Source: an uncultured Actinomycetes bacterium
GTDB taxonomy: Bacteria > Actinomycetota > Thermoleophilia > UBA2241
NCBI GenBank assembly: GCA_963783865.1
Contig: CAWAPD010000006.1
Coordinates: forward strand, 103,199-167,198
Length of the DNA stretch: 64,000 bases
Direction: 5' to 3'
How positions within the stretch are numbered: the first letter of the stretch is position 1; the number at the start of each line of letters is the position of its first letter. Shown here piece by piece: positions 25,376-29,834 of the stretch. A model generated the notes under the pieces. That model was not told where the DNA came from and made no database searches. It was given only the letters and a program-made list of their open reading frames with translations. Made by a program: the position numbers and the translations under genes.

Positions 25376-25945
25376 ATGAACGGGCAGACCGGTACGAGCA
25401 GGTCGTTCCTGGTGAGGGTCGGGGTGGTGCTCCTGGGCGGTCTGGCCATCATGGCCGTCGTCACGCCCCTGTACGTGTGGGCGCGTGCTACAAACCCGTC
25501 CCCCGCCGTGTCGGTGGCCGCCGACAACAACTGGATCGGCAGCTACGGCCTCGCCGGCGGCGCCATCGCCCAGCCGATGATGAAGAGCGGCGGCACCTAC
25601 ACCGTGATGAAGGTCCAGCCGGGCCCGAACACGCCGCAGTACGTTTCGGATCCCCTCAAGGACAAGCGCGGCGTCGTGCTGCTGGTCTACGTCAAGGGCG
25701 CCAGCGACGACGAGGCGATGCTCGCCAACTTCGAGAAGCTCAAGGCCAAGTTCGAGGCACAGGGATCGTTCTTCTCGTACGAGGCGGCCGACGTCTCCAA
25801 GACCGGCGACCTGCTCGCCCAGCTGAAGGTCAGCCAACCACCGGTGCTGGCAGTGATCAGCGGCGACGGCAGCGTGTACCAGGAGTACACGGGCTGGATC
25901 GACTATCAGACGATGTCGCAGGTGATGGCCAACGCCCTGCGCTGA
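25376..25945 (+). CDS. Membrane-anchored thioredoxin-like-fold protein lacking CxxC
   Basis: N-terminal TM; VVLLVY..helix..PPVLAVISGDG..YTGWID pattern; no Cys; GGAGG SD. Confidence 0.6.
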   Translation: MNGQTGTSRSFLVRVGVVLLGGLAIMAVVTPLYVWARATNPSPAVSVAADNNWIGSYGLAGGAIAQPMMKSGGTYTVMKVQPGPNTPQYVSDPLKDKRGVVLLVYVKGASDDEAMLANFEKLKAKFEAQGSFFSYEAADVSKTGDLLAQLKVSQPPVLAVISGDGSVYQEYTGWIDYQTMSQVMANALR

Positions 25946-26101
25946 GCGTCTGACGCCAGAGCCCTCCGCGCACCACCGCAACCACCGCAACCATCGCCGC
26001 CCCCCGGCCGGCGGCTGACGCTCGACGCCGGCCGCCGCGGTCCCTGCGGGACGCGTCTCCCACCAGCTTCGGCCGCGCACGTTTCGCCACGCACCCGCCT
26101 G

Positions 26102-26135
26102 TGGTACGATAATCCCGACCTGTAGTGTCGGTTAT
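26102..26135 (+). promoter_or_regulatory. Extended -10 plus IscR type-1-like operator
   Basis: TGGTACGAT then AATCCCGAC-CTGTAGT-GTCGGTTAT inverted repeat. Confidence 0.65.
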
Positions 26136-26150
26136 CGACGGAGGCCGTGG

Positions 26151-26564
26151 GTGCGTATCTCCTCACGCTGCGAATACGGCTTGAGAGCCATGATCTACCT
26201 CGCCCGCCGCGAGCACGACGGGCCCGTGCCGCTGCCCGAGATCGCCGCCGGTGAAGGTCTGCCGACCGCGTTCCTCGAGCGCATCCTGGCGCGCCTGCGC
26301 GACGGGGGCCTCGTCAGCACGACCAGGGGCGCGAGCGGCGGCTACGAGCTCGCACGGTCCGCCGGCGACATCTCGGTCGCCGACATCATGTCGGCCATCG
26401 AGGGGCCGCTCTCGCTGGTTGGGTGCCTGCCCGACGCCGAGACGTGCGACCGCGCCCAGGGCTGCGCATCTCGGCGAGTGTGGCGCCGGCTCGACGACGC
26501 GATCGCCGGCGCCCTCGGCGACATCGACCTGGACGAACTGGCCGTGGAGGCGGTCGCGACATGA
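26151..26564 (+). CDS. Rrf2-family regulator (IscR-like, three Cys)
   Basis: YGLRAM, LERILARL, RGASGGY, IEGPL, C-x6-C-x5-C. Confidence 0.9.
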   Translation: MRISSRCEYGLRAMIYLARREHDGPVPLPEIAAGEGLPTAFLERILARLRDGGLVSTTRGASGGYELARSAGDISVADIMSAIEGPLSLVGCLPDAETCDRAQGCASRRVWRRLDDAIAGALGDIDLDELAVEAVAT

Positions 26565-27718
26565 GGACGATCTACTTCGACCACGCGGCGACCACGGCGG
26601 TCGATCCGCGCGTCTTCGAGCGCATGATGCCGTACTTCGTGGAGCGGTACGGCAACCCGTCAGAGATCCACGCGCTCGGCCGTGAGGGGCGCGACGCCGT
26701 CGAGCGGGCGCGGGCCCAGGTCGCCGGCGCCCTCGGGGCCGCCGACAAGGAGATCGTCTTCACCAGCGGCGGGACCGAGTCCGACAACATGGCCCTGACC
26801 GGGTTCCTGCAGCGGTTCGAACCGGCCCACCTGATCGTCAGCGCGGTCGAGCACCCCGCCGTCATGGAGACGGCCCGCGCCCTGATGCGCACCGGGTGGG
26901 AGGTCACCTTCGCGCCGGTCGACTCGTTCGGCATGATCGACCTCGAGGCCTACACGGCCGCCTTCCGCGACGACACCAAGCTCGCCTCGGTCATGTACGC
27001 GAACAACGTCGTCGGCACCATCCAGCCCGTCGCCGAGCTGGCGCGCATCGCGCACGAGCACGGCGCGGCCTTCCACACCGACGCTGTCCAAGCCGTCGGG
27101 GCAGTGCCGATCGACGTGCGCGAGCTCGGGGTCGACATGCTGTCGCTCTCGGGCCACAAGCTGTACGGCCCCAAGGGGATCGGCGCCCTGTACATCCGTC
27201 GCGGCACGCGCGTCGGGCCGATCCTGCACGGCGGCGGTCACGAGCGGCGGCTGCGCTCGGGGACCGAGAACGTGCCGGGCATCGTCGGGCTCGGCGCGGC
27301 CCTCGAGCTGGGCCAACAGGAGATGGGCGCGCAGCTCCCGCGGCTGGAGAAGCTGCGCGACCGCCTCGCCCAGGGCTGGCTCGAGCTCATCGACGACACC
27401 GTCTACCTGGGTCACGCGACCGAGAGGCTCCCGGGCAACGTCTGCGTGTCGGTGCGCTACATCGAGGGCGAATCGATGGTGCTGCAGCTCGACGCCAAGG
27501 GCATCGCGGTCTCGAGTGGCTCCGCCTGTGCGTCCGGCTCGCTCGAACCGTCGCACGTGATCCTCGCCATGGGCTACGGCGCCGAAGAGGCCCACGGCAG
27601 CGTGCGCCTGACCCTCGGCCGCGAGAACACCGACGCCGACGTCGACGAGTTCCTGAAGGTCTTCCCGCCCATCGTCGCCCGACTGCGCGACATGAGCCCG
27701 CTCTACGTGAAGAGGTAA
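26561..27718 (+). CDS. iscS: Cysteine desulfurase (IscS/NifS)
   Basis: YFDHAATT, FTSGGTE, HTDAVQ, SGHKLYGPKG, SSGSACAS. Confidence 0.95.
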   Translation: MRTIYFDHAATTAVDPRVFERMMPYFVERYGNPSEIHALGREGRDAVERARAQVAGALGAADKEIVFTSGGTESDNMALTGFLQRFEPAHLIVSAVEHPAVMETARALMRTGWEVTFAPVDSFGMIDLEAYTAAFRDDTKLASVMYANNVVGTIQPVAELARIAHEHGAAFHTDAVQAVGAVPIDVRELGVDMLSLSGHKLYGPKGIGALYIRRGTRVGPILHGGGHERRLRSGTENVPGIVGLGAALELGQQEMGAQLPRLEKLRDRLAQGWLELIDDTVYLGHATERLPGNVCVSVRYIEGESMVLQLDAKGIAVSSGSACASGSLEPSHVILAMGYGAEEAHGSVRLTLGRENTDADVDEFLKVFPPIVARLRDMSPLYVKR

Positions 27719-27721
27719 AGC

Positions 27722-28135
27722 ATGTACACCGATCTTGTGATGGACCACTTCAGCAACCCGCGCAACGTGGGCGAGGTCGACGACCCCGACGGGGCCGGCC
27801 AGATCGGCAACCCGGTGTGCGGCGACGTGATGCGCATGACGATCAAGGTCGAGGACGACCACATCACCGACGTCAAGTTCAAGACGTTCGGGTGCGGCGC
27901 CGCCGTGGCGACCTCGAGCATAGTGACCGAGATGGTCATGGGAAAGACGCTCGACGAAGCGGCGGAGATCTCGAACCGCGCCGTGGCCGAGGCGCTGGGC
28001 GGCCTGCCGGCCCAGAAGATGCACTGCTCCAACCTGGCGGCCGACGCGCTGCACCTGGCGATCGAGGACTACCTCAGCAAGCAGGGACGGGGCGACGAGA
28101 TCCCCAAGGTGTTGCGAAAAAAAGAGTCCTCGTAG
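27722..28135 (+). CDS. iscU: Fe-S cluster scaffold IscU/NifU-N
   Basis: DHFSNPRNVG, GNPVCGD, FGCGAAVA, KMHCS. Confidence 0.94.
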   Translation: MYTDLVMDHFSNPRNVGEVDDPDGAGQIGNPVCGDVMRMTIKVEDDHITDVKFKTFGCGAAVATSSIVTEMVMGKTLDEAAEISNRAVAEALGGLPAQKMHCSNLAADALHLAIEDYLSKQGRGDEIPKVLRKKESS

Positions 28136-29166
28136 GCCTGAGCGGCGGCGTCGACAGCGCGGTCGCGGCCCTGGCTCTGCGAGAGTCGGGGTACGAGGTC
28201 GCGGGCGTCACGCTCGAGCTCTGGCCCGGCGATGACCAGCGCAGCTGCTGCTCTCCGGCGGCCGTGGCGCGCGCGCGCGACAGCGCCCACTCGATGGGCC
28301 TGCCGCACTACACGATCGACGACGTCGAGGAGTTCGCCGAGGGCGTGGTCGCGCCGTTCGTCGCCTCGTATGCGGCGGGCGAGACGCCCAACCCCTGCGC
28401 CGACTGCAACCCCCTGCGCTTCCGCCGGCTGCTTCGCCTGGCCGACCGGCTGGGGGCGCGCTGGGTGGCCACCGGCCACTACGCGCGCGCCCCGCTGGTC
28501 GACGGCCGGCGGATGCTGGCCCGGGGTAGGGACCGCGCCAAGGACCAGTCGTACATGCTCTGGCGGCTCGACCAGGGGGTGCTCGACCGCCTGCTGCTGC
28601 CGCTGGGCGAGTCCTCCAAGAGCGACGTGCGCGAGCGCGCCGCCGCCGAGGGTCTGCCGGTGGCGGGCGAGCCGGAGAGCCAGGACGTCTGCTTCGCGCC
28701 GGGCGACCACACCGCCTTCCTGGCCGCCCGCGGGCTGGCGGCCCGCGAGGGCGACGTCGTCGACCGCGCGGGCCGCGTCATCGGGCGGCACCGGGGCGCC
28801 TGGCGCTTCACCGTGGGACAGCGGCGCGGTCTCGGCCTGAGCGCGCCCGAGCCCCTGTACGTGCTGGCGGTCGACGCAGCCGCGAACCGGGTGGTCGCGG
28901 GACCTTATGAGGAGCTGCTGACGCGCGAGGTGGCGCTGCGCGGCCTGGTGGACCGCGGCCTGGGCGACGCCGACGGCCTCGAGGTGCAGCTGCGCTACCG
29001 GAGCGGCGCGATCGGCGTGGCCCGCCTGAGGCGGGCCGGAGCCGATCGCGCCGCCGTCACCCTGACGGAACCGTTCGCGGGTGTGGCACCGGGGCAGTCC
29101 GCCGTCTTCTACCGCGGCGACGTGGTGGTCGGCGGCGGGGTCATCGACGGGTGCTGCATACGCTGA
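28111..29166 (+). CDS. mnmA: tRNA 2-thiouridine(34) synthase MnmA (no canonical start; probably reached from iscU by a -1 shift)
   Basis: SGGVDS PP-loop, NPCADCN, ATGHYAR, KDQSY, ESQDVCF, FTVGQRRGLG, PGQSAVFY. Confidence 0.93.
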   Translation, partial: VAKKRVLVGLSGGVDSAVAALALRESGYEVAGVTLELWPGDDQRSCCSPAAVARARDSAHSMGLPHYTIDDVEEFAEGVVAPFVASYAAGETPNPCADCNPLRFRRLLRLADRLGARWVATGHYARAPLVDGRRMLARGRDRAKDQSYMLWRLDQGVLDRLLLPLGESSKSDVRERAAAEGLPVAGEPESQDVCFAPGDHTAFLAARGLAAREGDVVDRAGRVIGRHRGAWRFTVGQRRGLGLSAPEPLYVLAVDAAANRVVAGPYEELLTREVALRGLVDRGLGDADGLEVQLRYRSGAIGVARLRRAGADRAAVTLTEPFAGVAPGQSAVFYRGDVVVGGGVIDGCCIR

Positions 29167-29231
29167 CCGGCTTCGGGGGAGTGTGATAAGGTGGCGGCGC
29201 ACGACCGTCCCACCGGGCACAGACAGTCGAC

Positions 29232-29834
29232 ATGGAGGCGTCCATGAACCTTCCCCTCGCCATCGTCGCCCTGAGCACGCCTTCAGTGGTGTTGCGGTTT
29301 GCAGCAGCTTTCTTCCTGGTCGTCGTCGGCATCGGGCTCATCTACGCGTGCATCCGCCTGGGGACCGCTCTGAGCGCGGCCGAGAAGCTCCTCGGCGACG
29401 TCGACACCGAGGTCGTGCCGCTCCTCAAGGAGGCGACGGAGACGCTCGACGGCGTCAACACCGAGCTCGACAAGGTCGATGCCGTGATGAAGACCGTGGT
29501 CGACGCGACCGAGAAGGTCGACGCCACGACCCGCGCGGTCGAGGCGGCGATCTCGGTGCCGGCCAAGAAGGCCGCCGCGTTCGGCGCCGGTGTCTCCCAG
29601 GCCGTGTCGAGCTTCTTCAGCCGGCGTGAGCCGGGCGACGACTGGGACGACGGCGACGCCTGGCAGGCGGCGGCGCCGCCTTCGGCGGCGTGGTCGAAGC
29701 CGGCCGAGCCCGGCCCGGCCGGTGAAGCGACGCCGGACGCAGCCGCAACCGACACGGCGTCGGGTGTGGCCACCGACACGACGTCCCCGGCCGACGCGGC
29801 CGCTCCGGTGACACCCGAGGAGCCGACGGAGTGA
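29232..29834 (+). CDS. DUF948/YtxG-like membrane-anchored coiled-coil protein
   Basis: TM helix, heptad region, low-complexity Ala/Pro tail; family call tentative. Confidence 0.6.
   Translation: MEASMNLPLAIVALSTPSVVLRFAAAFFLVVVGIGLIYACIRLGTALSAAEKLLGDVDTEVVPLLKEATETLDGVNTELDKVDAVMKTVVDATEKVDATTRAVEAAISVPAKKAAAFGAGVSQAVSSFFSRREPGDDWDDGDAWQAAAPPSAAWSKPAEPGPAGEATPDAAATDTASGVATDTTSPADAAAPVTPEEPTE

Follow-up and report, generated by a model that had tools for sequence, protein, structure and literature searches.

The iscU-mnmA junction

The window, that is, the whole 64-kb stretch of DNA analysed (64,000 nucleotides of contig CAWAPD010000006.1, from an uncultured bacterium of the Thermoleophilia), carries iscU, encoding an iron-sulfur (Fe-S) cluster scaffold, followed by mnmA, encoding a tRNA thiolation enzyme, and the two genes overlap out of frame at a run of seven adenines (A7), which is examined here as a candidate site of programmed -1 frameshifting (Table 1). 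The end of iscU is GTG TTG CGA AAA AAA GAG TCC TCG TAG, in which the run at 28117-28123 reads A_AAA_AAA, and mnmA is read from the same adenines in the -1 frame (AAA AAA AGA GTC CTC GTA GGC CTG AGC GGC GGC GTC GAC AGC). The heptamer has the slippery form X_XXY_YYZ in phase with the 0 frame, in the window and at the corresponding loci of relatives (17/17 with A7 and 46/46 with C_CCA_AAA). The -1-frame open reading frame (ORF) that overlaps it has no initiation codon of its own; ATG, GTG and TTG are absent from the mnmA frame across the 83 codons 5' of the PP-loop Ser, and the next in-frame GTG lies at 28264. Position 1 of the Pfam tRNA_Me_trans profile falls on the Lys at 28120, which puts the beginning of the enzyme fold within the A-run. 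With 134 codons of iscU as far as 28123 and 347 codons in 28123-29163, the shifted product would have 481 amino acids, beside the unshifted IscU of 137 amino acids. Both reading frames, the missing start and the two product lengths had been proposed in a first-pass annotation made from the letters of this DNA, and its description proved correct wherever it was checked.

The same annotation had remarked that Lys is almost always encoded by AAG, and this was borne out in the genome, where AAG made up 6249 of 6428 sampled Lys codons and AAA 179 of 6428 (2.8%). The analysed genome (G000) has a size of 3.11 Mb in 6 contigs, a completeness of 94.9% and a guanine plus cytosine content of 70.7%. The run at the junction is the only A7 in the window, with 0.02 expected and one seen in 2 of 100 shuffles, and there are four A7/T7 runs in the genome, none of them longer; the remaining three sit between ORFs, as judged by eye from three-frame translations. 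Two of these runs, at G000:C1:570001 and G000:C1:582586, share the context GAAAAAAAGGGGG and lie in AT-richer, intergenic DNA about 12.6 kb apart and in opposite orientation; they may mark the two ends of a single element, or be a signal that is repeated.

Table 1. Positions in the window of the genes, motifs and putative signals around the iscU-mnmA junction.
Feature	Position	Strand	Basis or remark
Promoter-like site	26084..26113	+	Sigma-70-like consensus match only; upstream of the operon
Rrf2-family regulator (IscR/CymR-like), first gene of the operon	26151..26564	+	PF02082, E = 4e-36
Cysteine desulfurase, NifS/IscS-like, class-V aminotransferase	26558..27718	+	PF00266, E = 5.6e-89; start 26558 placed from the profile match
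iscU, 0 frame, 137 amino acids	27722..28135; TAG stop 28133-28135	+	PF01592 (NifU_N), E = 8.5e-50
Slippery heptamer A_AAA_AAA with invariant next G, proposed -1 shift site	28117-28123 (G at 28124)	+	
mnmA, -1 frame, 347 codons after the shift	28123..29166; TGA 29164-29166	+	PF03054, E = 9.9e-58; PF20259; PF20258
MnmA PP-loop SGGVDS	28141..28158	+	Invariant in 37 MnmA sequences
CC pair of the C-type MnmA motif	28246..28251	+	C44 and C45 invariant (alignment A2)
CxxC of the C-type MnmA motif	28396..28407 (Cys codons 28396-28398, 28405-28407)	+	C94 and C97 invariant (alignment A2)
Third cluster-ligand Cys of the C-type MnmA motif	28690..28692	+	C192 invariant (alignment A2)

Four plus-strand genes arranged head to tail, which encode the Rrf2-family regulator, the cysteine desulfurase, IscU and MnmA, apparently make up a single operon. 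A sigma-70-like scan of 25800-29400 gave one match (mean of 0.1 in shuffled sequence), upstream of the Rrf2 gene, and no promoter-like match between iscU and mnmA. The mnmA gene has its full length and invariant residues at every catalytic position, and there is a single copy of it in the whole genome.

Conservation of the junction in the family

The family consists of soil and sediment actinobacteria, and all genomes compared are metagenome-assembled genomes (MAGs). In 89 family genomes searched, mnmA was found in 82, and 76 junctions were classified; the fetched loci L082 (no hit in the stretch taken) and L088 (PP-loop not near the hit) were left unclassified. The same -1 offset together with an invariant slippery octamer was observed in 63 of the 76 junctions, in two forms. 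The form A_AAA_AAA_G was present in 17/17 unique sequences of its type, belonging to seven genera: the window (genus g1), 12 genomes of g2 and one genome each of g3, g4, g5, g9 and g11. The form C_CCA_AAA_G was present in 46/46 unique sequences, all of genus g10, and likewise in the phase X_XXY_YYZ. The bases flanking both octamers vary, and the octamers themselves are 100% conserved.

The other 13 junctions, without a heptamer, came from genera g6, g7 and g8 and from one locus of g10 (L018), and in 12 of them an ATG, GTG or TTG lies 5-25 codons 5' of the PP-loop Ser, in many cases at a normal stop-start distance. Of these 13, L018 is the most informative: it belongs to g10, its heptamer is disrupted (CCAGAAG), and mnmA has acquired a TAA-ATG start 12 codons before the Ser. 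At L017:1440-1520 (G007, genus g8; the same junction is seen in L090), neither a heptamer nor an ATG, GTG or TTG within 42 codons 5' of the Ser was observed; the iscU stop lies 54 nucleotides (nt) before the Ser, and an ATC placed 8 nt after AGGAG might be a non-canonical start.

In a scan of 401 genomes sampled from the class, the signature pattern was found in 61 of 79 family genomes besides the window. Hits in 4 of 321 genomes of other families were rejected as shift sites; these are in-frame fusions with a Lys-Lys or Gln-Lys linker. A tree was made from iscS-3' and iscU DNA for 64 of the 76 junction loci, the others being short of flank or of a full iscU hit. Its backbone was unresolved, and the heptamer labels needed 4 changes on it versus a mean of 18.8 when shuffled; each heptamer may have had one origin, as far as this tree can suggest.

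Selection on the heptamer and the switch of reading frame

All three iscU third-codon positions within each heptamer are invariant, and among neighbouring iscU third positions only 4 of 50 are invariant in g10 and 2 of 50 in the A7 set (11 sequences with enough flank). The codon preceding A7 encodes Arg, Gly, Leu or Pro, yet it is always a rare codon ending in A: CGA (Arg, 3.0%, 1 locus), GGA (Gly, 4.2%, 12 loci), CTA (Leu, 0.4%, 1 locus) or CCA (Pro, 2.3%, 3 loci), each percentage being the share among the codons of that amino acid in G000. All 46 g10 sequences have CCA in the P site and AAA in the A site. Conservation of the site therefore goes beyond what the protein requires, with invariant octamers and rare codons throughout; judged from these sequences, selection at the heptamer is on the nucleotides and not on the protein.

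The codon-position pattern of variability flips exactly at the site. In g10, variability 5' of the site was highest at iscU third positions (0.225 vs 0.075 and 0.083), that between the heptamer and the PP-loop was highest at mnmA third positions (0.228 vs 0.130 and 0.030), and further 3' the mnmA third positions were still the most variable (0.251); the same flip was observed in the A7 set. The overlap peptide in the mnmA frame is conserved (K-K-S-V-V-V-G-L-S-G-G and P-K-x-x-x-A-L-V-A-L-S), with A/V-L-V-A/G-L-S-G-G right after the site, and the iscU-frame tail after the site is short and variable. Because both conservation and third-position variation there follow the mnmA frame, translation in that frame must start no later than the first codons that follow the heptamer.

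No ATG, GTG or TTG was found between 42 and 2 codons 5' of the Ser in 46/46 g10 junctions, and in seven of these loci (L009, L042, L056, L059, L060, L069 and L070) stops in the mnmA frame lie 19-21 codons 5' of the Ser with no start in between. In the A7 set, near starts were found only in L004, with ATG 4 codons ahead of the Ser, and in L006, with GTG 5 codons ahead of it. With these starts, MnmA would have a shorter N-terminus than any stop-bounded one seen by eye in about 75 MnmA loci from other phyla, where the shortest such N-termini have their Met 8 codons before the Ser (L097, L153 and L161).

Probable programmed frameshifting and alternative explanations

Programmed -1 ribosomal frameshifting at the A-run, giving IscU and an IscU-MnmA fusion as the first-pass annotation had supposed, is very probably the explanation of the junction, in view of the octamer at 63 of 76 junctions, the frame switch at the site and the ordinary start codons at nearly all junctions that lack the site. 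Most ribosomes on iscU would terminate at the TAG at 28133 and release free IscU, and a fraction would slip back by one base on A_AAA_AAA. The slippage would be in tandem, with the A-site tRNA-Lys(UUU) moving from AAA to AAA and the P-site one doing the same; in the g10 form, the P-site tRNA-Pro(UGG) would move from CCA to CCC. The shifted ribosomes would then read through mnmA and produce a fusion containing IscU residues 1-134. Each of tRNA-Lys(UUU), tRNA-Lys(CUU) and tRNA-Pro(UGG) is encoded by a single gene in the genome. Because mnmA lacks an initiation codon and the genome lacks a second copy, the frameshift would be the only route to MnmA, and mnmA expression is in all likelihood dependent on iscU translation via this site. 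We infer that it is the ribosome that shifts, that it does so with useful efficiency and that the active enzyme is the fusion.

Several observations weigh against this explanation. The organisms are known only as MAGs and the trans-frame product is predicted from DNA alone, and read-level support for the window is thin, consisting of one bridging Logan contig. A stimulatory element was not established on either side of the site. The downstream hairpin of the first-pass annotation stands in so far as the CCTCGTA/TACGAGG pairing is present in the minimum-free-energy fold, but neither its significance nor its conservation was borne out: the downstream fold in the window has -40.2 kcal/mol and z = -1.6, with 16 of 200 shuffles folding at least as well, and a conserved hairpin stimulator was rejected after RNAalifold and single-sequence folds, which differ between the heptamer groups and involve mostly PP-loop coding sequence. 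The hairpin is rejected as something shown, not as something impossible. An AAGGTG-like stretch 5 nt upstream of the site is present in the window and g2, only part of the A7 group, and is absent from L007, L011, L013 and genus g10; a search of Rfam gave zero matches in 27000-29500 at E up to 1. A stimulator is not required at every bacterial frameshift site. Stop-start overlaps near the PP-loop are present in L004 (TAATG) and L006 (GTGA), at which some reinitiation may occur. Indels are carried by the assemblies of L065, L173 and P0174, and the in-frame fusions of sister families, described below, use a diverged paralogous IscU-like domain and offer an architectural precedent only. In L173 (G065:C20), L065 (G090) and P0174, the extra 1-nt indels lie inside iscU or right after CCCAAAAG and are probably assembly errors.

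The same protein product would arise if RNA polymerase added an A on the A7 run, so that a fraction of the mRNA with A8 encoded the fusion and the ribosome remained unshifted. A homopolymer run is the substrate of that mechanism, and A7 is invariant in 17/17 loci of its type; however, efficient polymerase slippage needs runs of about 8-9, and g10 keeps the arrangement in 46/46 loci with C_CCA_AAA_G, whose four-A run is too short. The base before the run is moreover held as A in the iscU phase, which is relevant to the ribosome, whereas the polymerase would be served by any A7, and a single mechanism for both heptamer groups is more economical. Polymerase slippage could contribute on A7, but it is not sufficient, because a heptamer containing only A4 does the same job in 46 genomes, and as an account of the junction it is unlikely. 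A lower probability still is given to an absence of recoding, in which MnmA would be made by non-canonical initiation or termination-reinitiation near the iscU stop (at CTG 28138, at GTT 28111 or at overlaps of the L004/L006 type) and the A-run would be kept for some other reason. The overlaps of L004 and L006 are of the classical stop-start kind, the iscU stop lies 0-12 nt from the PP-loop Ser codon across loci (54 nt in L017), and L017, with neither a canonical start nor a heptamer, suggests that some unusual initiation may exist in the family. Such starts would nevertheless leave 0-4 residues before the Ser of SGGVDS and remove the first beta-strand of the fold, against the minimum of 8 codons in other phyla; the residues from the heptamer to the Ser are conserved in the mnmA frame and hence translated in that frame; and two in-phase slippery heptamers held invariant with rare codons would be left unexplained.

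A miscalled in-frame fusion with a true A8, or a decayed mnmA pseudogene, is extremely improbable. The genome is in 6 contigs and so may come from long reads, and indel-bearing assemblies exist in the family (L065, L173 and P0174), but A7 is found in 17/17 independent assemblies of 6 to about 520 contigs each, and a further 46 genomes share the -1 offset with a heptamer that is not a long homopolymer. One of the cases that the first-pass annotation had named as fatal to its proposal, a true A8 and relatives in which no A-run is conserved, is excluded by these two observations. A contig from another run (X3 record 12) also bridges the site with 0 differences and no indels at 28117-28123; a second Logan contig (X7 record 31) starts 22 nt before the A-run and was not counted as bridging. 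Decay is opposed by the full length, sole copy and invariant catalytic residues of mnmA.

MnmA, IscU and the fusion architecture

The PP-loop SGGxDS and three MnmA Pfam domains are present, with S9, G10, G11, D13 and S14 invariant. The C-type assignment made in the first-pass annotation agrees with the motif CC...CxxC...C (C46-C47, C96, C99 and C194 of P0002), and all five Cys of the motif and the PP-loop are invariant in the 37 MnmA sequences. The C-type motif is defined in PMC7025502, and the need of such enzymes for a [4Fe-4S] cluster was shown in Thermus (PMC7025502). On its motifs, the enzyme here is probably a C-type, [4Fe-4S]-dependent tRNA 2-thiouridine-34 synthase. The IscU is of the scaffold type with a full ligand set, C33, D35, C58, H101 and C102 being invariant in 26 relatives.

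Outside the window, a second cysteine desulfurase (373 amino acids) and an IscU-like protein are encoded at G000:C1:159300-167700, and because of this second NifS and IscU-like locus the present operon may be dedicated to tRNA thiolation. The IscU-like protein there has 269 amino acids in total with a C-terminal extension of about 140 amino acids, and a TusA-like ORF (CPEPL motif) and a DsrE-like ORF, named by eye from translations, adjoin the second desulfurase locus. A dedicated desulfurase-MnmA pair is known from B. subtilis, YrvO-MnmA (PMC13066941). The present operon resembles that pair, and the iscS-iscU-mnmA arrangement of Clostridia (L094, L095 and L101), in the neighbourhood of desulfurase, (IscU) and mnmA, and has in addition an Rrf2 regulator upstream; in those systems, unlike here, there is a gap between the upstream gene and mnmA, which has a start codon of its own. 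In the three Clostridia MAGs, an IscU 59% identical to the present one is encoded directly 5' of an mnmA with an ordinary ATG, so this neighbourhood also exists outside the Actinomycetota.

Single-ORF NifU_N+MnmA proteins of about 490 amino acids are encoded in sister families of the Thermoleophilia. Among the matches listed, all of the clusters (at least 120) had this architecture, and where they were named they were named simply MnmA. The sister fusions have the same domain order as the product predicted here, a MnmA part that is also C-type, and a linker of similar length (24-26 residues from the final helix of IscU to the PP-loop Ser, counted by eye), but they are permanent in-frame fusions and not a frameshift junction. 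Their NifU_N domain is 32-34% identical to the present IscU, and its third Cys is replaced by Gly (H-G for H-C); the fused domain of L022 also lacks the second Cys, having Ser instead. In alignment A3 (31 in-frame fusions of f2 and L022 of f6; compare L030), Cys35 is invariant, Cys60 nearly invariant and Arg-Arg-His kept. The fused NifU_N domain has the look of a degenerated scaffold that now serves as an adaptor, and at least one genome with an in-frame fusion (G034) has retained a separate, true IscU with 73% identity to the present one. In L170 and L171 (G213 and G144; genus g21), about 130 nt 5' of the PP-loop, a linker peptide of about 15 residues, GSDPHGGQSLCQKRV, is tandemly duplicated with an insert between the copies, and a single copy of it is present in the linker of L172.

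The first-pass annotation had seen the IscU part of the fusion as a cluster donor. Because the fused domain of the sister families is a diverged paralogue, a putative docking or sulfur-delivery role is favoured at least equally with the putative one of a cluster donor, and, compatibly with the feedback loop considered below, the IscU moiety may dock the fusion onto the cysteine desulfurase. A complex prediction for MnmA with IscU residues 1-128 scored 0.01 (mark 0.32) and is evidence neither way.

When in-frame MnmA fusions of the true IscU were sought, the two Pfam families occurred together in 5 of 120 proteins among the matches listed. Four of the five (P0123, P0174, P0173 and P0168) were read and rejected as such fusions; they contain stretches that are evidently translated out of frame and look like indel-bearing assemblies. 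Two other groups of IscU homologues were observed. P0124-P0127 and about 30 more of those listed, with about 500-540 amino acids, carry PF14528 with or without PF14890, which we take to be LAGLIDADG/intein-type domains; they are intein-containing IscU proteins, mostly archaeal by their source names. The other group, also a large one, consists of proteins of about 444 amino acids in which pyridine-nucleotide disulfide oxidoreductase domains are fused to IscU (Methanoperedens and relatives).

Comparison with known frameshift systems

Programmed -1 frameshifting on heptamers of the A_AAA_AAG type takes place in the IS3-family orfA-orfB genes and in E. coli dnaX, and the heptamer found here is of a type known to shift. 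The present site shares with them a slippery heptamer of Lys codons near the end of the upstream frame and a 0-frame stop shortly after it. In IS3 a short upstream protein and a trans-frame fusion are made, the fusion being the active enzyme; here the two would be IscU and IscU-MnmA. This class of heptamers is mentioned in the review PMC5009743. Unlike IS3 and dnaX, the present site lies in a housekeeping Fe-S/tRNA-modification operon of the Thermoleophilia, and neither an upstream Shine-Dalgarno-like stimulator nor a downstream hairpin is demonstrable at it. Its A-site codon is AAA and not AAG, which fits a genome with both tRNA-Lys(UUU) and tRNA-Lys(CUU): AAA would be preferred over AAG where AAG is read by a separate CUU tRNA, unable to re-pair after slipping. 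A further difference is that the shift in dnaX gives the shorter product.

The heptamer of E. coli copA is C_CCA_AAG, and this C_CCA_AAN type matches the form found in genus g10. According to PMC5009743 and PMC6182138, copA is likewise a chromosomal, non-mobile gene, and one gene gives a small metal-handling protein and a larger enzyme, as would be the case here. In copA, however, the shift truncates, the result being a 70-amino-acid chaperone, whereas here it would extend and fuse; copA also has a downstream pseudoknot as stimulator, and none was found here.

A possible feedback loop

The A-site codon is AAA in both forms of the heptamer, and in the A7 form the P-site codon is AAA too. The codon is read by the single tRNA-Lys(UUU) of the genome, and the wobble U34 of this tRNA is the thiolation substrate of MnmA. 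In E. coli, as Maynard et al. (PMC3296357) conclude, reduced thiolation of tRNA-Lys(UUU) to 2-thiouridine at position 34 (s2U34) leads to more -1 shifting at the lambda G/GT heptamer. That site is also a -1 shift with Lys and tRNA-Lys(UUU) in the A site; there the modification enzyme belongs to the host and is unrelated to the shifted phage gene, whereas here the shifted gene would be that of the enzyme itself. If less s2U34 raises shifting, low MnmA activity could raise MnmA synthesis, and because MnmA is C-type, a low Fe-S or sulfur supply would act likewise. The logic would be comparable to the sensing loops of RF2 and antizyme. Lys heptamers are the norm for bacterial -1 sites. Since most such sites use Lys codons anyway, the coincidence of the A site with tRNA-Lys is weak evidence alone. 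That the frameshift serves as a sensor, a product-sensing recoding loop coupling Fe-S status to tRNA thiolation, is accordingly offered as a tentative idea, which we regard as rather doubtful.

Significance

A report of an iscU-mnmA frameshift or fusion was not found in full-text searches of the literature, and the terms mnmA, IscU, NifU and thiouridylase do not occur in the portion of the review PMC5009743 that was examined. The site is apparently a real, conserved and previously undescribed programmed -1 frameshift site, and it would add a new, conserved example, from a housekeeping operon of bacteria, to the known cases of programmed frameshifting. To our knowledge, conserved programmed -1 frameshifts in chromosomal, non-mobile genes of bacteria are few, namely dnaX, copA and a handful more. 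With 63 genomes, eight genera and two interchangeable heptamers, the present case is an unusually clean one for comparative analysis.

For the family, the annotation is corrected, since the mnmA of such genomes will otherwise be called truncated, mis-started or missing, and a NifU_N-MnmA fusion architecture that is present database-wide and has gone unremarked is brought to notice. For the organism, the synthesis of an Fe-S scaffold and the thiolation of the tRNA wobble base would be linked in one translational event. If the feedback is true, a tRNA-modifying enzyme would be made by slippage of the very tRNA that it modifies.

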